The position numbers and the translations under genes are program-made. A stretch of 23,022 nucleotides of DNA. Source: a virus (lineage: Duplodnaviria; Heunggongvirae; Uroviricota; Caudoviricetes). The stretch lies in IMG/VR virus record IMGVR_UViG_2698536506_000009; one strand, written 5' to 3'. Positions 20 through 8,455 of the stretch are shown piece after piece. The notes beneath the pieces were generated by a model that saw nothing but the letters and a program-made list of their open reading frames with translations, was not told the origin of the DNA and made no database searches. Positions within the stretch are counted from its first letter, which is position 1; each line of letters begins with the position of its first letter.

Positions 20-1315
20 TTAATTTTTCATTGCTTCGTTATGGGGCATGGTTGGGGCAAACTCGCTTAACTGTGTATTTAACAAAGCTACCTGTGCATT
101 ATTGTTTTCAGACATCCATTTTCCGTATACCTGAAATACCATTTGCGCATCTGCATGGCCCATCTGGTTTGCTATAAATGCCGGGTTAGCACCAGCTGTC
201 AGCGACCAGCAGGCATAAGTATGTCTCGACTGATATGATTTTCGATGGCGGAGTCCGGCACGTTTTATCGCTGCGTCCCACATCTGCCTTATTGAGTCAA
301 CGGTAAAATGGTCACCATAATTTTTTACTCTCGCTGACACTTCAGGTTGAAAAACAAAGGTGCATTTTTGTTTTTCTGTTCTGCCATACTCTCTGAGGTG
401 AACATCAATGATATGCTCTTTGCTCAGTCTCGTTAATGTCATCTGACTCCGGAGAGCGTCGATTGCTGGCTTAATAAGATGAATGACCCGATTGGTTCCC
501 GCCTGTGTTTTTGGTACCGTGAAACGGTCTTTTGCTAAATTTCTCCTGATCATCATTGTTCCATTTTTCAGATCTATGTCCTCCCATCCAAGTGCACACA
601 GCTCACCAGGGCGAACTCCAGTATAAACAGAAACACACCATAAATTTTTTGCTTGCTGATTTCTGCACGCATCGATAAGACGGATAAATTCTTCCCGCGA
701 AAGAGGATCCGGAATGGTTCTTGATTCCTTTAATGGCGAGATCCCCTTAAACGGATTATCTGCCAGGTAACCGTTATCAACACCAAACTGGAACACGGCG
801 TTAAGATTTGTCATGTAATTATTTACAGTTACAGCCGATCTCCCTGGTTGTGTAACAATATAGTTACTTTTGGGGATCTGGTATCCAGTCAGTAACTCTT
901 TACGAACCTCCAGTAATTTTTCTTTATTAATCGATGAGGCAAGATTTTTTTCACCGATTATGCTCAGGATATTTTTGATGACGGCACGGTATGTGTTGAG
1001 TGATGTTTTGGCGACTTCAGTTTCTTTCAGTGCCAGAAATTTTTCAGCCAGTTCTTTTATGGTTAAATCTTGTCGGGCCTCACCAAATTTTTCCAGATTG
1101 CGTGAGGAGGGAAACTGTTTTGCATAGTCGAAAACACCAGTTTTTATTGCGTAACAAACAGAGGAGCGTAGTTCACCTGCAACGCGCCTGTTTTTTGCTG
1201 TGTCAGGAACCCCCAGATTTTCCCTGACTCTTACGTCTTTATAAACAAACCAGATACGTAATTTCCCTCCATGGTTTTCCACGCCTGTCGGATATTTCAT
1301 TTCAACTTCTCTCAT
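20..1315 (-). CDS. int: Tyrosine integrase, lambda family (Rac IntR-like)
   Basis: 431-aa ORF whose C-terminal region carries ...RKSYQSRHTYACWSLTAGANP...QMGHA..., which I recognise as the catalytic region of lambda-family integrases. Start may be the second Met (1300). It sits at the prophage end beside an excisionase-like gene. Confidence 0.85.
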   Translation of the reverse strand: MREVEMKYPTGVENHGGKLRIWFVYKDVRVRENLGVPDTAKNRRVAGELRSSVCYAIKTGVFDYAKQFPSSRNLEKFGEARQDLTIKELAEKFLALKETEVAKTSLNTYRAVIKNILSIIGEKNLASSINKEKLLEVRKELLTGYQIPKSNYIVTQPGRSAVTVNNYMTNLNAVFQFGVDNGYLADNPFKGISPLKESRTIPDPLSREEFIRLIDACRNQQAKNLWCVSVYTGVRPGELCALGWEDIDLKNGTMMIRRNLAKDRFTVPKTQAGTNRVIHLIKPAIDALRSQMTLTRLSKEHIIDVHLREYGRTEKQKCTFVFQPEVSARVKNYGDHFTVDSIRQMWDAAIKRAGLRHRKSYQSRHTYACWSLTAGANPAFIANQMGHADAQMVFQVYGKWMSENNNAQVALLNTQLSEFAPTMPHNEAMKN

Positions 1316-1334
1316 TAGTTAGTGTGGCTTTTAG

Positions 1335-1586
1335 TCAAGTAAGATGACGTCTTGGTCTCGCTGATGCCTGGCGCTCAATCCAGCGATCAATTTCTTCCAG
1401 GTTGTAAAAGCATGGACTGTTATCCCATGGCATACCGTCATGAGCGACATGCTTATATTCCCTTTCTTCCATAAACGATTTTTCCCGGGCCTTTTTTAAC
1501 GTACCTTTTTTTATTCCTTTCAGCGCAATTAACTGCTCTTCGGATACCCATTTGCCGGGAGAGACAATCATGATTACTTCGCTCAT
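1335..1586 (-). CDS. xis: Excisionase-like small DNA-binding protein
   Basis: 83-aa basic ORF immediately upstream of and co-oriented with int, the usual xis position. The family call is from memory, not a search. Confidence 0.55.
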   Translation of the reverse strand: MSEVIMIVSPGKWVSEEQLIALKGIKKGTLKKAREKSFMEEREYKHVAHDGMPWDNSPCFYNLEEIDRWIERQASARPRRHLT

Positions 1587-1658
1587 CGATTTCTTTATCT
1601 CTTACATCAGACGAGCGCCGGTTGCAGAATACCAGTCACAACCGGCGACAGTTGAACA

Positions 1659-3680
1659 TTAAGAATCAGCCTGACTCGGGATCAGTTTTTGCCAGATAAC
1701 TGAAACGTATTTTGCCTGGTAACGGGCGTCATCAAGTGCATTATGGCGCTCACCTTCGAATGGAATAGCCGTTCTGGCATCGAAGTCTATGGCTTTCCCC
1801 AGCTCAACGATTGTGCGTACATCGCGATCGTTGTAGTAACGCCACGGGCAGGGGATCCCCTGCCGTTCGTATGAACGGCGCAAAATCGTGTTGTCGAAGT
1901 TGGCTCCATTTCCCCAAACCTGAACAAAAAATTCACCGGAGTTTTCGTCGATAAATTCTCGCAATTGTAACAGTGCATCATCTAACGGGATTTCATCGGT
2001 CATAATGGCAGATTGCGCTTCGCGTGATTGCTTAAGCCACCATTTAATGGTGTCCCGATCAATGACTCCGCCAGCAGTTTCCAGATCGATAGTCTTACTA
2101 AATTCCGGTCCCATATCTCCGGTTTGCGGATCGAAAAATATTGCACCTATTGAGATGATCGGGGCATCAGGATTTTTTCCCATGGTTTCAAGGTCGATCA
2201 TTAGATGGTCACACGTCCTGCTGGTGGATGTGATTTCGTGATGACCGTTCACCTTAATTGGGTGATCTGCCGTCTCGCCAGTTTCATTATCGCTATTGTG
2301 ATGCTGATTGCCGCCAGTGTTCTCCTTGTGTGGATGTTCAGCGCCTTCCATTTCCTCCGGATCATCTTCCTGAACTTCAACCTGATACTCTTCATCGAAT
2401 GTTTCTTGGTATGTTGCGTCGCCCATCACCGCGCCACAATCAGGGCAGTTGCCGCCGCCGGTCTGACCGCAGGCGGTGCAGACTTTTTCCACTTCCTGTT
2501 GCGCTACTGGTTCAGGCTGTTTCGTTTCTGGCTCGTTTTGTAACGCATTTGGACTGTTTTGTTCCGCTTTTTGGTAGTTCCGTTCCGATTCATGCTGGTT
2601 CTGGTTCACAGAATCGCGGGTCTGGAGCCCCTTAACCCATTTCGGATCATTCGGGTCACTAATCCCTTCAACAAATTCACCACGTGATGCAGCAAGCAAC
2701 TTATCGGCGTCAGGCTGGCTGATATTGGCTGCCTGCATAATTTTGTTTACTTCGTCAGCGGTAACTTTTATCGGCTCTGGTTGTTCTGAATCTTCAGCGG
2801 TATCTACATTTTGCGGTAAGCCCGTGTATGTGCCATTTTTTCGGGCAAAATATTCTTCTTTTGTGATTTCAGTGGCGCCAGCAGCCAGTGCCTTATCCAG
2901 ACCAGAGAGTTTGTTTGCGCGACCGTATTTTTCTCCGTCCTTATCTGCGAAGAGGAAATAGAACGGCCCCTCACGCTCTACAGATGGTTCAGCTTCCGGC
3001 GCGGTTTCATTTTTTGGGATATCAGATACCTCAGTTTCCACTGCATCAGTTTGTGTTTCTGATGACTGGAGAACATCAACAGTGCCCAGGTCTGTTTCTT
3101 CATTCTCAAACACGCCCTTTGTCGTCAGGTATTCGCAGATATATTTGTTCAGTGCTACGGGATCTTTGTGAATGTCGATCGGACGCTCACGGACAAGGCC
3201 AAAAATAGTTTGGCGGTCGTAGCGAAGGGCATCAGGCTGTTTGCGCATTGATGCCGAGATACGCTTCCAGTCTTCGCGGTCGTTGTCGATAACTTCTTTT
3301 TTTGCCCAGCGATGGATGCTGCCGTCAATGTTTCCGGCATCCACATCACTAGGCCAGAGAGCGTAGGCCAGTTCGTCATCCAGTGTTTTCCATGTCTGCT
3401 TGTATTCGCGATGAATGGCAGCAATGACCGGGCTGATTTTTCCTGTTGAATTTTCAGTGTACTGTTGATTGGCTCTGGCGCGGGCGAGATCAACAACAGA
3501 CGTGTATTTTCCGGTTTCCTTGCGTTCACCTTCGCGACGTTTTTTCCAGATGCGCATCTCTGCCTGAATTTCGGGCCATTTAGCACCAGGAATACATTTA
3601 TGCTTAACCCACCCAATGGCGTGCAACTTAAGCTCCGGATATTCGAAGTGGACGATGACGCAACACCTGAGGAAATTCAT
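1659..3680 (-). CDS. Multidomain putative 3'-5' exonuclease (DnaQ-like DEDDh C-terminal domain)
   Basis: 673-aa ORF. C-terminus has MIDLETMG, VWGNGANFDNTIL and HNALDDARYQA, consistent with DEDDh exonuclease motifs. The middle is an acidic low-complexity linker with a CxxC-x8-CxxC pair (CTACGQTGGGNCPDCG). The annotated start codon overlaps a plus-strand ATG (CATG at 3678-3681), so the true start may lie downstream, e.g. the Met at 3557. Confidence 0.7.
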   Translation of the reverse strand: MNFLRCCVIVHFEYPELKLHAIGWVKHKCIPGAKWPEIQAEMRIWKKRREGERKETGKYTSVVDLARARANQQYTENSTGKISPVIAAIHREYKQTWKTLDDELAYALWPSDVDAGNIDGSIHRWAKKEVIDNDREDWKRISASMRKQPDALRYDRQTIFGLVRERPIDIHKDPVALNKYICEYLTTKGVFENEETDLGTVDVLQSSETQTDAVETEVSDIPKNETAPEAEPSVEREGPFYFLFADKDGEKYGRANKLSGLDKALAAGATEITKEEYFARKNGTYTGLPQNVDTAEDSEQPEPIKVTADEVNKIMQAANISQPDADKLLAASRGEFVEGISDPNDPKWVKGLQTRDSVNQNQHESERNYQKAEQNSPNALQNEPETKQPEPVAQQEVEKVCTACGQTGGGNCPDCGAVMGDATYQETFDEEYQVEVQEDDPEEMEGAEHPHKENTGGNQHHNSDNETGETADHPIKVNGHHEITSTSRTCDHLMIDLETMGKNPDAPIISIGAIFFDPQTGDMGPEFSKTIDLETAGGVIDRDTIKWWLKQSREAQSAIMTDEIPLDDALLQLREFIDENSGEFFVQVWGNGANFDNTILRRSYERQGIPCPWRYYNDRDVRTIVELGKAIDFDARTAIPFEGERHNALDDARYQAKYVSVIWQKLIPSQADS

Positions 3681-3741
3681 GACGGAGCATAAGAAATTTT
3701 CTTTAACTACTGCAATTACTCATACCACGAAATAAAAGACG

Positions 3742-3933
3742 ATGAGGAAGAACAAAGTGGCTGATTTTTGTTCAGCTAAATATAACATCAGTTTTGAAGA
3801 GCGGGATGAACTATTAATGGACTATGGTGAGTTACGCGGTGGAAGTGCTGCTGATGTCGAATCCTAGCGTGATGACTATGAAGCGGGAAAAACTCCGGTC
3901 GAAGCATATTGTGATGAGTGGGGCGATGAATGA
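3742..3933 (+). pseudogene. Short ORF interrupted by an in-frame TAG (41 codons, TAG at 3865-3867, 21 more codons)
   Basis: Purine-rich sense-like codon usage on the plus strand. The reading frame continues in phase across the TAG to a TGA that overlaps the next ORF start (ATGA). No convincing SD. Function unknown. Confidence 0.3.
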
Positions 3934-4217
3934 GCGAGATTAATTATCAGGAAGGGCATGAAACGGCGGGGCAAGCAAAACCAGTGGCATGGCGATATCG
4001 CTACGTGAAAAAAGGCGTTACGGACTTTCAGGGGAAGTAGTGGTCTGGTGACTGGAAATATGTACCGAAAAAAGAGGATTGTAACGACAGGCCGAACTAT
4101 CAAATTCAGGCCTTATTCACTGCCTCACCAGTCCCAGTTACATCAGAAGAACTGGTTAAAGCTGTGCACTTTTATGAACAACTAAAACGCGAAAATCCAC
4201 CAACATCCGGCAACTAG
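3930..4217 (+). pseudogene. Short ORF interrupted by an in-frame TAG (36 codons, TAG at 4038-4040, 58 more codons)
   Basis: Translation MSEINYQEGHETAGQAKPVAWRYRYVKKGVTDFQGK, stop, WSGDWKYVPKKEDCNDRPNYQIQALFTASPVPVTSEELVKAVHFYEQLKRENPPTSGN. Protein-like composition on both sides of the TAG; the antisense frame is compositionally implausible. Confidence 0.35.
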
Positions 4218-4471
4218 ATTAATGGATTAACTATGTCGGTTAAACGACCAGCCAACTGAAAAAGCGGAAACCTGATTACAGGTTGCCAGATAAGGCAATG
4301 AGCTACCTGGCGCGGAACGGACTGATAAGTATGGGGAATGTTTTACGATGAACCTTTAGACTAAAGAGTTTGTAACGCTATGTAAGTGATTTTTTCTGGT
4401 TTAGATATTTATATGTCCGGCCAAATTGAGGTGTGTTTAAATGTAATTGCACATTGATTGTAGGAGGAATA

Positions 4472-4651
4472 ATGAAAAACGCATTGCAGTTTTTGTTTGT
4501 TGCGTTCTGGTTGTTCGCATCATGTATGCCCATCATCTTCACAGCAAGGTATATGGAAAAAGTTGATGTTTTGATATTAATATTTGGATATATAAATGCC
4601 CTTTTTTTAGGGGTGTTCATGGCGGTCATGTGCATTGAATACTGGCGGTAA
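4472..4651 (+). CDS. Small hydrophobic protein, two predicted transmembrane helices (59 aa)
   Basis: AGGAGG at 4462-4467, 4 nt before the ATG. Sequence MKNALQFLFVAFWLFASCMPIIFTARYMEKVDVLILIFGYINALFLGVFMAVMCIEYWR has two hydrophobic segments separated by a short polar loop. Confidence 0.5.
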   Translation: MKNALQFLFVAFWLFASCMPIIFTARYMEKVDVLILIFGYINALFLGVFMAVMCIEYWR

Positions 4652-4899
4652 ATACAGCGAACTCCATTGGTTTAGTTGGATATTTACTGTGCTGGACAAA
4701 AACGGTTTGCGGGGAAATCTTAGTTAAGTAGAATGACTGCGGGTGCTTGAGGCTATCTGCCTCGGGCATGGACACCAACGGCAGATAGAGAAAAGCCCCA
4801 GTTAACATTACGCGTCCTGCAAGACGCTTAACATTAATCTGAGGCCAATTTCATGCTAGACACATGTAGGTTAGCCTCTTACGTGCCGAAAGGCACGGA

Positions 4900-6450
4900 G
4901 AAGCAGGCTATTGTTAACACCAAGCTGTAATGTCCCCTTTGAACCATTCTAAAATGTCCCCAGACAATTCTCTGGGGGATTTTTCATGATCAAAGAGACT
5001 GTTACGATGAGTCATAAGGAACTCCACCGACTTCAGATTATTCAGGAACAAGCTGCGGCACGCATTGGCATTTCTATTCGGCAGGTTAAACGTCTGGTGC
5101 AACGGTATAGAAATGAAGGGCCTTCTGGTCTGGTTTCCCACCGACGTGGAAAGCGTCCTAATAATTCCTTTTCTACTGAATTCAGAGCAACAGTAATTTC
5201 ACTCCTCAAAGGCCGTTACGCTGATTTTGGACCTACGTTTGCGTGCGAAAAATTGCGCGAGATACACGGTTTATCTTTATCCGTTGAAACTCTCAGAAAG
5301 TGGATGATAGAAGAGGGGTTATGGCGTGAACGCCGTCGTAAAATTGCCCGTATATATCAACGCCGCATGCGACGACCATCTTACGGTGAACTGATCCAGA
5401 TTGATGGCTCACCTCATGACTGGTTTGAAAATCGAGGCCCCAGATGTACACTGATCGTTTTCATTGATGATGCCACCAGTGCGTTGATGGCGTTGCGTTT
5501 TGTGCCTGCTGAAACAACCCGGGCTTACATGGAAACCCTCCGGGGTTACCTTAATGATCATGGCGTACCGCTCGCTCTCTACTCTGATAGACACAGTATA
5601 TTCAGGGTAAATAACCCAGAGCGGGAAGGTGAGCTGACCCAGTTCACTCGTGCGATAAAGACACTGGGCATCGAGCCAATCCATGCCAACAGCCCGCAGG
5701 CAAAAGGGCGGGTAGAGCGCGCCAATCAGACACTACAGGACAGGCTGGTCAAAGAAATGCGGCTTCAGAATATCAGTGATATTGAAACAGCAAATGCATG
5801 GTTGCCGACCTTTATTGAAGCCTATAACAACCGGTTCGCTACGTCGCCTCGTACTACTGATAATGCTCATCTTGATGTGCACCATTCTGAAGAGGAACTG
5901 GGTTATATCTTCAGCCTACAGGCGAAGCGCGTTCTGTCTAAAAATCTCACTTTCCAGTACAAAAGCAGTGCGTTTCAGGTACGCAGTGAGGGCCGGGGAT
6001 ATCGACTTAGGCATTCGGTTGTTACTGTATGCGAGAACTTTGACGGTGAAATTAACGTTCTGTATGACGGGAAAGCGCTGGGCTGGGAAAAGTATGTTGA
6101 TGGCCCGGAGCCTATACCACTGGATGATGAAAAGAGTGTCCATGAACGAGTGGATAATGCCCGTATTGATTTACGCTCAAAATACTATGTTAAACCTAAA
6201 GCTGACCATCCCTGGCTTACGCGCCGAACGCAAAGTCATCAGCAAGTTAAGCCCCCGAAGTTACCTAAAAAGAAGCCTGATCCCGATAAAAAAGATTGAA
6301 ACCAAGATCGATTCGGTTGAGTGCATATCCATTCATAGGGTAGATTCTTAAGTCGCGTTTCTGGTGTTCATTTTCGGGTGGTTTGTTACTTGTTTTACCG
6401 GGGATATGCCAGAAACGCGCTGAGTCAGTCTGGGCGGTGCGCGTAATGAG
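4900..6450 (+). mobile_element. Insertion sequence carrying the rve transposase (boundaries approximate)
   Basis: Single transposase ORF flanked by non-coding sequence. I could not identify terminal inverted repeats or a target duplication by eye; only an 8-bp AGGCTATT / AATAGCCT pair (about 4903 and 6462), which could be chance. Confidence 0.3.
4986..6299 (+). CDS. DDE transposase with retroviral-integrase-like (rve) core and N-terminal HTH
   Basis: 437-aa ORF with an N-terminal HTH-like region (RIGISIRQVKRLVQRY), candidate catalytic D in IQIDGS, D in LYSDRHSIF, and the rve hallmark NSPQAKGRVERANQTLQ. Family (IS481-like or ISNCY-like) not resolved. Confidence 0.85.
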   Translation: MIKETVTMSHKELHRLQIIQEQAAARIGISIRQVKRLVQRYRNEGPSGLVSHRRGKRPNNSFSTEFRATVISLLKGRYADFGPTFACEKLREIHGLSLSVETLRKWMIEEGLWRERRRKIARIYQRRMRRPSYGELIQIDGSPHDWFENRGPRCTLIVFIDDATSALMALRFVPAETTRAYMETLRGYLNDHGVPLALYSDRHSIFRVNNPEREGELTQFTRAIKTLGIEPIHANSPQAKGRVERANQTLQDRLVKEMRLQNISDIETANAWLPTFIEAYNNRFATSPRTTDNAHLDVHHSEEELGYIFSLQAKRVLSKNLTFQYKSSAFQVRSEGRGYRLRHSVVTVCENFDGEINVLYDGKALGWEKYVDGPEPIPLDDEKSVHERVDNARIDLRSKYYVKPKADHPWLTRRTQSHQQVKPPKLPKKKPDPDKKD

Positions 6451-6735
6451 GCGTTATGGTAAATAGCCTATGCTAATGTCCGCTAAGAGCAAGAAGCGGA
6501 AGTTGGCAGTTTTGTGGACTGTCCCCACAAAAGTGACTACAGAAATAGTTGCAATTCATAATTGATCATGGGTTGTCAGTTAAACTCGTGGCGATTTAAA
6601 TAGACTAATTGGGAGTGCGTCCATTACTTATATCTTGTAATGTTAACTATCAGAAATGATACAAAGATAATATGTCTTTAAAGAAAAGGCTGATGGCGAA
6701 AAGTGGCCCGATGAGGGCCACAATACGGCTGTCAC

Positions 6736-7068
6736 TTAGACGTAAATATCAATGGTGCCAGCGGTATTTGTATCGTCTTTTTTCTCTTCTTTTTTATCAG
6801 GCTGAACTGTCGCGTCTTCATTCTTTTTCTCTGCCTGCTGCCTTAACAACTGCTCCAGTTGAGCCCAGAGGCTTTCAATTTGCTTCTGTACCAATGCAGC
6901 CATTTCTTTTTTCTGCTGTGTCGTCATCCCCTCTTCCGATGAGATTTTCCCAAGCTTTTCAGTCAGCACCTGAATTTGTCTTGTGATTTTGGCTATTTCT
7001 GATGTTCCTTCCGGGGCGGAGTTGTTTGAAATAACGGTTGAGGTATTTCCCTGAATTGTGACAGACAT
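6736..7068 (-). CDS. flxA: FlxA-like protein
   Basis: 110-aa ORF MSVTIQGNTSTVISNN...TAGTIDIYV matching my recollection of FlxA in length and sequence, preceded by a near-consensus sigma-28 promoter. Confidence 0.8.
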   Translation of the reverse strand: MSVTIQGNTSTVISNNSAPEGTSEIAKITRQIQVLTEKLGKISSEEGMTTQQKKEMAALVQKQIESLWAQLEQLLRQQAEKKNEDATVQPDKKEEKKDDTNTAGTIDIYV

Positions 7069-7091
7069 AGATTTCTCCTTTTAAAAAAGCA

Positions 7092-7118
7092 CTATCGGCA
7101 TGCACAAAAAAATCTTTA
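7092..7118 (-). promoter_or_regulatory. Sigma-28 (FliA) type promoter for flxA
   Basis: Minus strand reads TAAAGATT, 11 nt, GCCGATAG against consensus TAAAGTTT-N11-GCCGATAA. The -10 complement is at 7092-7099 and the -35 at 7111-7118. GGAG sits 6 nt before the flxA ATG. Confidence 0.6.
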
Positions 7119-7270
7119 ATCGTATTTCTTGTGTCATTAATTGTTTGATGTTCAGATTGTTTTCCTCGCGGGCTGGCGCGCCTCAGAAAGTAAAGCTTGT
7201 TGACAGGGGTAAACGTTCGGCAATAATTTTCTGCCGCATGCGGGTGTTGCATAAAACGTGTTACGTTCCT

Positions 7271-7576
7271 TTATCGACAGGTCAGGTCACCGCTCACCCG
7301 CCGACGAGAAAGCAACACTGACATGCTAAAGCAAAAAATAGATGAATAAGTTGAGTTGTGCATATGTAGCCTGACCGTCACAAAGTATATGGTGTCTGTA
7401 CCAGTAAGATGATGGCCGGACTCTTTAAAAACGAGCTGACCTGCACAATACAGGATGGACTTAGCAATGGCTGCTCCTGGCACAAAGCGGACAGTGATCA
7501 CCGTTCTTACGACTACTTTCTGACTTCCTTCGTGACTTGCCCTAAGCATGTTGTAGTGCGATACTTGTAATGACAT
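7271..7576 (-). CDS. ydfV: Hypothetical protein (YdfV-like)
   Basis: 101-aa ORF between flxA and relB, divergent from relB, matching the K-12 Qin position and length of ydfV as I recall them. Confidence 0.55.
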   Translation of the reverse strand: MSLQVSHYNMLRASHEGSQKVVVRTVITVRFVPGAAIAKSILYCAGQLVFKESGHHLTGTDTIYFVTVRLHMHNSTYSSIFCFSMSVLLSRRRVSGDLTCR

Positions 7577-7589
7577 TTGTAATTACAAG
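7564..7589 (+). promoter_or_regulatory. relBE operator/promoter palindrome
   Basis: CTTGTAATGACATTTGTAATTACAAG lies immediately upstream of relB, with repeated TTGTAAT hexads and inverted arms CTTGTAAT / ATTACAAG, consistent with RelB-RelE autoregulation. Confidence 0.5.
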
Positions 7590-7600
7590 AGGTGTAAGAC

Positions 7601-7840
7601 ATGGGTAGCATTAACCTGCGTATTGACGATGAACTTAAAGCGCGTTCTTACGCCGCGCTTGAAAAAATGGGTGTAACTCCTTCTGAAGCGCTTCGTCTCA
7701 TGCTCGAGTATATCGCTGACAATGAACGCTTGCCGTTCAAACAGACACTCCTGAGTGATGAAGATGCTGAACTTGTGGAGATAGTGAAAGAACGGCTTCG
7801 TAATCCTAAGCCAGTACGTGTGACGCTGGATGAACTCTGA
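7601..7840 (+). CDS. relB: RelB antitoxin
   Basis: 79-aa ORF MGSINLRIDDELKARSYA...RVTLDEL. Its stop overlaps the relE start (ATGA). Confidence 0.9.
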   Translation: MGSINLRIDDELKARSYAALEKMGVTPSEALRLMLEYIADNERLPFKQTLLSDEDAELVEIVKERLRNPKPVRVTLDEL

Positions 7841-8127
7841 TGGCGTATTTTCTGGATTTTGACGAGCGGGCACTAAAGGAATGGCGAAAGCTGGGCTCGA
7901 CGGTACGTGAACAGTTGAAAAAGAAGCTGGTTGAAGTACTTGAGTCACCCCGGATTGAAGCAAACAAGCTCCGTGGTATGCCTGATTGTTACAAGATTAA
8001 GCTCCGGTCTTCAGGCTATCGCCTTGTATACCAGGTTATAGACGAGAAAGTTGTCGTTTTCGTGATTTCTGTTGGGAAAAGAGAACGCTCGGAAGTATAT
8101 AGCGAGGCGGTCAAACGCATTCTCTGA
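7840..8127 (+). CDS. relE: RelE mRNA interferase toxin
   Basis: 95-aa ORF MAYFLDFDERALKEWRKLG...SEAVKRIL, translationally coupled to relB. Confidence 0.9.
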   Translation: MAYFLDFDERALKEWRKLGSTVREQLKKKLVEVLESPRIEANKLRGMPDCYKIKLRSSGYRLVYQVIDEKVVVFVISVGKRERSEVYSEAVKRIL

Positions 8128-8198
8128 ACCAAAGCATGACATCTCTGTTTCGCACCGAAGGTGACACTTCTGCTTTGCGTTGACAGGAGAAGCAGGCT

Positions 8199-8354
8199 AT
8201 GAAGCAGCAAAAGGCGATGTTAATCGCCCTGATCGTCATCTGTTTAACCGTCATAGTGACGGCACTGGTAACGAGGAAAGACCTCTGCGAGGTACGAATC
8301 CGAACCGGCCAGACGGAGGTCGCTGTCTTCACAGCTTACGAACCTGAGGAGTAA
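8199..8354 (+). CDS. hokD: Hok-family small membrane toxin (HokD/RelF)
   Basis: 51-codon ORF, too short for the supplied track: MKQQKAMLIALIVICLTVIVTALVTRKDLCEVRIRTGQTEVAVFTAYEPEE. One TM helix and conserved Hok C-terminus, directly downstream of relE. Confidence 0.85.
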   Translation: MKQQKAMLIALIVICLTVIVTALVTRKDLCEVRIRTGQTEVAVFTAYEPEE

Positions 8355-8422
8355 GAGACCCGGCGGGGGAGAAATCCCTCGCCACCTCTGATGTGGCAGG
8401 CATCCTCAACGCACCCGCACTT

Positions 8423-8455
8423 AACCCGCTTCGGCGGGTTTTTGTTTTTATTTTC
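8423..8455 (+). terminator. Rho-independent terminator after relBE-hokD
   Basis: AACCCGC, loop TTCG, GCGGGTT followed by TTTTTGTTTTTATTTT. Confidence 0.6.

Follow-up and report, generated by a model that had tools for sequence, protein, structure and literature searches.

In Escherichia coli K-12 the toxin RelE is a ribosome-dependent mRNA endonuclease that is neutralised by RelB, and the two proteins together repress their promoter at the operator relO. Mutagenesis and footprinting have defined the half-sites of relO, TTGTAATGACAT and TTGTAATTACAA, and their four [A/T]TGT[A/C]A hexads (PMC2812701). Behind relBE lies hokD; hokD without the canonical hok/sok components has been attributed to ‘genomic rearrangements’, and other hok loci of K-12 (hokA, hokC and hokE) are inactivated by insertions of IS150 or IS186 (PMC12214031). 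In the published architecture of hok mRNA, the tac element pairs over a long range with fbi, the fold-back inhibitory element (PMC9841398). Insertion sequences (ISs) of the IS1202 family have TGT...ACA ends, imperfect repeats of 24-26 bp and an inner binding site that occurs a second time; among them, ISEsa1 is listed as 1,609 bp with 15/22 terminal inverted repeats and no detectable target-site duplication (TSD), and no target has been found outside the short-TSD group (Harmer, Pong & Hall 2023, PMC10132070). Here we describe a 23,022-nt stretch of DNA, IMG/VR virus record IMGVR_UViG_2698536506_000009 (Caudoviricetes), which is called the window throughout and to which all positions refer unless otherwise stated. 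Its relB-relE-hokD operon (7564-8455) was very probably created when a relBE-bearing transposon landed between the leader and the ATG of a hok gene. The operon has been described before; what appears to be new is an IS1202-family transposon that ends in a relBE module and is site-specific, with hok as its target.

The locus at 7564-8455 is not in itself new: it is the known operon relBEF, carried by an E. coli cryptic prophage of the Qin type. Positions 7500-8520 have 100% nucleotide identity to E. coli K-12 MG1655 and to many other strains, where relB, relE and hokD are annotated, and at least 80% of this interval is present in 1,162 of 5,426 complete E. coli genomes. The window and K-12 share the proteins, relO and the terminator; they differ to the left, where K-12 matches the window only from position 6115 rightwards and has neither the hok leader with its sok gene, nor the left target duplication, the left inverted repeat (IRL) and most of the transposase gene. 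Because K-12 has lost the left junction, the origin of the operon is not visible there. The right breakpoint of this K-12 deletion or replacement, at window 6115, falls inside the transposase gene, and the K-12 gene ‘ydfW’ (49 aa; window 6150-6299, L001 7651-7800) corresponds to the last 49 codons of an ISEsa1-type transposase.

It is clear from other strains that the two sides of the window locus belong together. In BLAST searches, many E. coli loci annotated ‘hokD’ match the window from 8185 rightwards only, and many other E. coli loci match the leader up to 4911 only. Both halves are found joined in a Qin-like prophage of strain SY3626 (L002), which carries an uninterrupted hok/sok locus just upstream of rem: positions 5826-6016 there correspond to window 4721-4911 with 97.9% identity, and 6001-6671 to window 8185-8855 with 99.7% identity. 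The 15-mer GGAGAAGCAGGCTAT occurs once in this empty site and twice in the window, as an exact direct repeat at 4897-4911 and 8186-8200. Since the two halves are contiguous in SY3626 and the 15-mer is single, window 4912-8185 is an insertion with a 15-bp duplication. The right copy contributes the Shine-Dalgarno (SD) sequence GGAG of hokD and the AT of its start codon, ending immediately before the G.

On sequence comparison, the inserted unit is a 3,274-bp transposon of the IS1202 family (ISEsa1-type) with TGT...ACA inverted repeats and a 15-bp target duplication. IRL, TGTTAACACCAAGCTGTAATGTCCCC, lies at 4912-4937 (+ strand), with a second, subterminal copy of its inner part at 4943-4961, and its boundary was set by the differing flanks of other copies (L005, L006, L131). 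The right end consists of the 58 nt at 8128-8185 (+), with the right inverted repeat (IRR) at 8160-8185, ending TTCTGCTTTGCGTTGACA. When the left end TGTTAACACCAAGCTGTAATGTCCCC is set against the reverse complement of the right end GGTGACACTTCTGCTTTGCGTTGACA, 22 of 30 positions, and also 19 of 26, agree in exact terminal register; the 22/30 match has a binomial P of about 4e-8 and was reached by 0 of 200,000 random window pairs. The significance of the repeat rests on this exact terminal register and not on its rank, as the pair fell outside the top 25 of the repeat search, matches of 70-75% over 20-25 nt being common in 3.3 kb. With a further copy of the inner repeat near each end, the element shows all three terminal traits of the family. 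Its 15-bp duplication, seen here and in three further double-ended copies, falls within the clade-specific lengths known for IS1202 elements (5-6, 15-17 or 27-28 bp), and its mobility is indicated by the empty site in SY3626 together with the presence of the same unit in different contexts.

The transposase gene (4986-6299, +) encodes a 437-aa DDE transposase of the IS1202 family, ISEsa1-type (NCBIfam NF033594 ‘ISNCY_2’, 456 bits against a cut-off of 250). The protein is identical to WP_004196353.1 (‘IS1202-like element ISEsa1 family transposase’, from plasmids of Klebsiella and Enterobacter), save that nine amino acids, SINRHITQE, are missing from the N-terminal helix-turn-helix (HTH) at aa 21/22, a 27-bp in-frame deletion in the region of window 5046-5050. 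Without this deletion the element measures 3,301 bp; both forms are flanked by the same 15-mer in prophage contigs, 60 of which carry the 3,274-bp or the 3,301-bp form at the hokD site. Just inside IRL and 8 nt 5' of the transposase ATG there is a hairpin (4957-4978) followed by ATTTTTC, which might shield the transposase from an outside hok promoter. The idea that the hok promoter drives the transposase across the left junction was unsupported, this terminator-like hairpin standing between the leader and the ATG.

Insertion at the start of a hok gene is not confined to this prophage. Four independent insertions with both ends preserved, the window copy included, lie in different hok loci in the same register. 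The copy on a Phytobacter plasmid is 12.8 kb long and has the duplication GGAGAAGTCAGCTAT: at its left junction an R1-like hok leader runs through ...GGAGAAGTCAGCTAT into TGTTAACACC, and at the far end, after 12.8 kb, come relE, ...GCGTTGACA, GGAGAAGTCAGCTAT and the GAAACTG... of a different hok gene. On an Enterobacter plasmid the copy is 6,093 bp with the duplication GGAGAAGAAGGCCAT (15/15), and in E. hormaechei CP114145.1 it is 9,174 bp and flanked by GGAGAAGAAGGCC, with TG on the left against AT on the right. The hok leaders at the left junctions clearly differ from each other, with a mean column identity of 68%.

A wider census was made by searching for the 18-nt tip of IRR in contigs of one genome per species. 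About 125 IS1202-type element ends carry this tip; relBE lies directly upstream in 27 of them, with RelE 93-100% identical, and a hok start region adjoins about 17 of these 27 relBE-IRR ends, nearly all in the same register and with at least eight distinct Hok peptides between them. One hok insertion is reversed on the same 15-mer (L073), and hok starts are also occupied by relatives that lack relBE and differ in the interior of IRR (L015, L042, L082). The census shows that elements with this relBE-IRR end have inserted repeatedly into many different hok genes, plasmid-borne and chromosomal, in Enterobacterales, and have done so in one common register. Simple 1.6-kb ISs with the same tips, found in Pseudomonadales genomes, have exact duplications of 15-16 bp, which indicates that the duplication length is a property of the clade and fits the one published IS1202 subgroup with repeats of 15-17 bp.

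Head-to-tail junctions were also seen, in which, at a hok-type target, 15 bp separate IRR from a following IRL that belongs to another element of 90% identity (L011 1396-1411; L110; L118 with 10 bp); these are either tandem insertions into a regenerated target or circle-junction-like structures. The plasmid pMS7884B was taken up as a double-ended case outside hok and then dropped, its right flank being hok and its left flank rearranged. A choice of target through similarity between the target and the inverted repeat, suggested by AAGCAG in IRR and in the hokD target, was likewise dropped, as the motif is absent from other hok targets.

Comparison with the plasmid copies resolves the element into two modules common to the copies, 4912-6504 (IRL and the transposase gene) and 7473-8185. 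The second of these, a conserved right-end module of 713 bp (+), holds PrelBE/relO, relB, relE and the 58 nt ending in IRR, and unrelated plasmids have it with 98.5-99.6% identity. Copies with something other than hok on their right lose homology precisely at 8185, which fixes the right boundary of the element. Between the modules lies cargo that varies from copy to copy: in the window it occupies 6505-7472 and includes flxA (6736-7068, minus strand); on the Phytobacter plasmid and pMS7884B it comprises ncrABCY, chrBA and others (12.8 kb in total), and further cargo genes are present in the 6.1-kb and 9.2-kb versions, so that the moved unit spans 3.3-12.8 kb among copies. The open reading frame (ORF) ydfV (7271-7576, minus strand) straddles the cargo/module boundary at 7473, overlaps the relBE promoter region and has no family match; it is perhaps not a real gene. 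In the plasmid copies a degenerate sequence resembling IRR, GGACGTTTGGTTGACG, marks the point where the left module ends (L004 at about 3040-3054, equivalent to just after window 6504). A simple IS probably once had its right end here, which would explain the 1,609-bp ISfinder entry without a target duplication.

The initial annotation had placed a type II relBE pair and a Hok-type gene in one operon with an operator and a terminator, and this arrangement is borne out: the genes are co-oriented, with a single promoter and operator 5' and a single terminator 3'. The antitoxin gene relB (7601-7840, +) encodes 79 aa of the RelB/DinJ ribbon-helix-helix type (Pfam PF04221, 1e-32; NCBIfam NF008412, 133 bits against a cut-off of 96), identical to K-12 WP_000534858.1. 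It overlaps by 1 nt the toxin gene relE (7840-8127, +), the relB stop and the relE start both lying within 7838-7842. RelE is a 95-aa protein of the RelE/StbE type (Pfam PF05016, ParE_toxin, 2e-13; NCBIfam TIGR02385), identical to K-12 WP_000323025.1, and the same RelE is encoded by the plasmid copies. The third gene, hokD (relF; 8199-8354, +), encodes a Hok/Gef membrane toxin of 51 aa (Pfam PF01848, HOK_GEF, 1e-23) that is identical both to K-12 WP_000813254.1 and to the Hok of the uninterrupted SY3626 locus; its length of 51 codons was as first given, and a frameshift or stop, which was sought in it, is not present. As these RelB and RelE are those of K-12, the window proteins would be expected to have the toxin activity and neutralisation of their K-12 counterparts. 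The toxicity of hokD alone on overexpression has reportedly been described already, Gerdes 1986 and a 2026 preprint being named as the sources.

The putative promoter PrelBE (+) has a -35 hexamer TTGCCC at 7537-7542 and a -10 hexamer GATACT at 7560-7565. It is followed by relO (7565-7588, +), with the half-sites TTGTAATGACAT and TTGTAATTACAA; the TTGTAAT repeats noted at first are present three times, at 7565, at 7577 and inverted at 7582-7588, and the whole interval is identical to the mutagenised and footprinted four-hexad autoregulatory operator. The operon ends at the native hok terminator (+; hairpin 8423-8440, T run to 8450), part of the hok half of the locus, which is collinear with SY3626. 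Consensus promoter scans of the window called none of PrelBE, the hok promoter and the sok promoter, and the hexamers given in this work come from reading by eye and from the literature.

No obvious Sok-like antisense promoter had been noticed near hokD, and the absence of Sok is correct for the interval 7564-8455, where Rfam places nothing above its gathering threshold. In a scan of the whole window, however, the family RF01794 (‘sok’) gave a full-model match at 4741-4912 (+) with 104 bits, against a gathering score of 59. The model starts with GGGUGCUUGAGG and ends at AUG, and so represents the sense strand of the hok mRNA leader. GGAGAAGCAGGCTAT is where the match ends, and that 15-mer is the sole similarity between the leader region and the hokD region. 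Sok is absent near hokD because sok, the hok promoter, tac and the mok start (4741-4911) have been split off by the 3,274-bp insertion. The orphan leader (4741-4911, +) is 97.9% identical to that of the uninterrupted SY3626 locus and contains tac (4741-4752), a truncated mok' ORF (4853-4930) and the Sok target. A putative hok promoter (4706-4734, +; -35 TTTGCG/TTGCGG, -10 TAGAAT), read by eye and under the consensus threshold, lies 6 nt 5' of the leader start, which fits position 1 of the Rfam model at 4741. The predicted sok gene (4796-4896, minus strand) has a -35 hexamer GTGCCT at 4896-4891 and a -10 hexamer TAACCT at 4873-4868, with a spacer of 17 nt; its RNA would run from about 4861 to 4796 and is perfectly complementary to its own leader. 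The -35 hexamer is TTGCCT in SY3626, against GTGCCT in the window, a possible down-mutation of the orphan sok.

The split has consequences for the RNA. In minimum free energy folds of the intact SY3626 mRNA and of the rejoined halves of the window, nt 1-12 (tac, 4741-4752) pair with fbi (8404-8416, +). This predicted pairing is recovered only in the rejoined sequence; in the relBEF mRNA fbi has no such partner, as tac is on a separate transcript. What remains of the hok mRNA structure in the relBEF transcript is fbi, the internal fold and the 3' hairpin; tac, ucb, mok and the Sok target are missing from it. No antisense Sok overlaps a leader of the hokD transcript, the sok gene at about 4796-4896 being 3.3 kb away, and relB-relE-hokD is thus not a functional hok/sok module. 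The RNA from the relE stop to the terminator folds with a z of -3.45, and here the tip of the transposon with the start of the duplication, UGCGUUGACAGG (8176-8187), is predicted to pair with fbi at 8404-8416 as if it replaced tac; this pairing may be due to chance. An action of the orphan Sok in trans on hokD was rejected, the duplex having an energy of -44.0 kcal/mol against -42.7 +/- 3.2 kcal/mol for shuffled sequences. Weak Rfam matches at 8339-8444 (isrK, rsmX, P9) are just the hok 3' hairpins and are below the gathering score.

The initial annotation also pointed to a 15-codon ORF upstream of hokD that might play a role like that of mok. The ORF exists, at 8136-8183, one base to the left of where it had been placed (8137-8184), and the role is not supported. 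Its ATG lies 8 nt after the relE stop, and 15 nt separate its end from the hokD ATG; there is no overlap with hokD and no SD sequence, and the ORF is wholly within the 58-nt transposon end. Its ATG is changed to AGG in four of nine variants of the right end, in which relBE, the length and the repeat motifs are kept. On the present evidence of position, non-overlap and non-conservation it was therefore rejected as a mok. There is no mok overlapping hokD, mok' (4853-4930) having been cut off at the left junction.

What the comparisons make visible is the anatomy of the element, its duplication, the empty site, the recurrence of insertion and the common register, and from these the following history is drawn. 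An ISEsa1-type element inserted into a complete hok/sok locus of the prophage, duplicating GGAGAAGCAGGCTAT, which covers the hok SD sequence, the spacer and the AT of the ATG. The left junction (4741-4911) kept the hok promoter, tac, the mok start and sok, and the hok coding region, fbi and the terminator came to lie directly behind relE. K-12 later lost the left junction, leaving the ‘ydfW’ remnant. Having no promoter, mok or sok of its own, hokD would depend for its transcription solely on read-through that starts at PrelBE and runs to the native hok terminator. The transposase, or a step of target capture, may recognise the conserved translation-initiation region of hok. Such an insertion would exchange an RNA-controlled addiction module for the relBE of the transposon, with hokD riding along as a downstream gene under the control of RelB and RelE; the element may profit from a target that conjugative plasmids and prophages commonly carry, and from bringing its own addiction module.

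Several observations weigh against this history. For this strain, the transposition, the recognition of a target and any read-through into hokD are deductions from sequence. About 10 of the 27 relBE-IRR ends have flanks other than hok, and a complete 3,301-bp copy in an IMG/VR contig (L161, 1344-4645) lies at a non-hok site with a 6-bp repeat, CGCCTT; it seems that the specificity for hok is strong but not absolute, or that later rearrangements are common. The duplication in E. hormaechei CP114145.1 agrees at only 13 of 15 positions. The window transposase is possibly inactive owing to the nine-residue deletion in its HTH. Further, the moved unit may stem from read-through of a simple IS to a second right end, and not from an IS that originally carried passengers. 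Finally, a literature search for ISEsa1 or IS1202 together with hok or relBE found no account of this origin of the operon or of hok target specificity; it did not cover Gerdes 1986 and Pedersen & Gerdes 1999, where the breakpoint may already have been described.

The three genes are co-oriented, with a single operator and a single terminator, the small ORF is closely spaced (8 nt from the relE stop, 15 nt to the hokD ATG) and the arrangement is frequent among E. coli genomes, being found in the 1,162 counted above, all of which would suit an original, co-evolved relB-relE-hokD operon in which the ORF was a mok-like coupler and Sok never had a part. Yet homology to complete hok/sok loci begins exactly at 8185/8186, a leader with sok is present at 4741-4911 with the same 15-mer, the ORF lies inside the inverted repeat and has lost its ATG in four of nine variants, and the relBE module is 98-100% identical beside very different hok genes; the empty site and the duplications already contradict such an origin, which we regard as extremely improbable. 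A single ancient insertion into hok, spread afterwards among hok loci by homologous recombination or gene conversion without target-specific transposition, is also very unlikely. Conserved blocks in hok leaders and coding regions could support such recombination, one contig (L190) has left and right flanks from different hok loci, and pMS7884B has a hok flank on the right only. The four double-ended cases, however, carry the local variant of the hok 15-mer on both sides, with GCAGGCT, GTCAGCT and GAAGGCC differing by locus, and identity falls from about 99% to unalignable exactly at the ends of the repeats. Nor would spread by recombination be expected to give relBE-less relatives with another IRR interior at hok starts (L015, L042, L082) or the opposite orientation at the same 15-mer (L073).

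It is somewhat unlikely, though it would be a variant of the proposed history rather than a contradiction of it, that a 1.6-kb ISEsa1 of the simple kind has lost its own right end, and that DNA is now mobilised as far as a surrogate one after relBE. All copies share 4912-6504, the plasmid copies show the degenerate GGACGTTTGGTTGACG there, ISfinder gives ISEsa1 as 1,609 bp without a TSD, and the cargo between the modules is highly variable. On the other hand, the agreement with IRL is closer at the distal end, which has both inner motifs at matching positions, than at the internal site, the relBE-IRR module is kept as a unit across many species with RelE 93-100% identical, and decayed copies retain relBE and both ends (L019, L034). 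The insertion of a relBE-bearing transposon at the hok start thus remains our preferred explanation. A bolder extension of it, which we consider unlikely, is that relBE-carrying ISEsa1-type elements are dedicated ‘hok hunters’ and that the fusion is functional, the insertion silencing a resident killer gene, with control by RelB and RelE replacing control by RNA and the tip UGCGUUGACAGG replacing tac, to give a hybrid type II/type I addiction module. If this were so, the read-through hok mRNA, with tip and fbi paired, would stay translationally inert up to its processing, the hybrid module would stabilise the transposon and its cargo on plasmids and prophages, and relBE of E. coli, the classical system, would be a passenger of a transposon.

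Set beside its nearest relatives, the locus has both familiar and distinct features. With hok/sok of plasmid R1 and the chromosomal hok loci it shares the Hok/Gef peptide and, in the mRNA, fbi, a 3' hairpin and an internal fold, together with the leader, tac, mok start and sok at 4741-4911; it differs in being split by 3.3 kb, with hokD unlinked to promoter, mok and Sok. The element resembles ISEsa1 (IS1202 family, formerly ISNCY) in its transposase, apart from the nine residues, in IRL, in its TGT...ACA ends and in the second inner binding-site copy, whereas the window unit reaches past relBE to its IRR, duplicates 15 bp and has a preference for hok starts. Elements of the ISAjo2/ISAba32 type, which target the XerC/D sites dif and pdif, belong to the same family and likewise insert with an orientation bias at one short conserved plasmid site and in tandem; the window element differs in that it targets the hok SD-ATG region and not a Xer site, in its duplication of 15 bp against 5 bp, and in carrying a toxin-antitoxin pair and cargo. 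As with IS150 and IS186 in hokA, hokC and hokE, a mobile element has put a chromosomal hok locus out of action; for the IS150 and IS186 insertions no register-specificity or recurrence across hok families is reported, and they do not put hok behind a toxin-antitoxin operon.

Elsewhere in the window, Rfam matches at 11758-12150, 14660-15045 and 19482-19680 represent two cspA-type thermoregulator leaders (cspB and cspI homologues) and the candidate small RNA IS009. The intervals 1180-3363 and 3642-4911 have no counterpart in the K-12 Qin prophage. The whole 23-kb window was not matched as one collinear piece among the complete E. coli genomes of the collection, in which it is found in 3-5 pieces over 26-31 kb.

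The window supplies a concrete mechanism by which hokD came to lie behind relBE without mok and sok, and it gives ISEsa1 a right end, a duplication length and a target. The relBE genes, among the best-studied type II toxin-antitoxin systems, prove here to be the terminal module of a transposon. The same transposon also moves nickel, chromate and other cargo on clinical Enterobacterales plasmids, and repeatedly knocks out hok/sok loci that serve plasmid stability.

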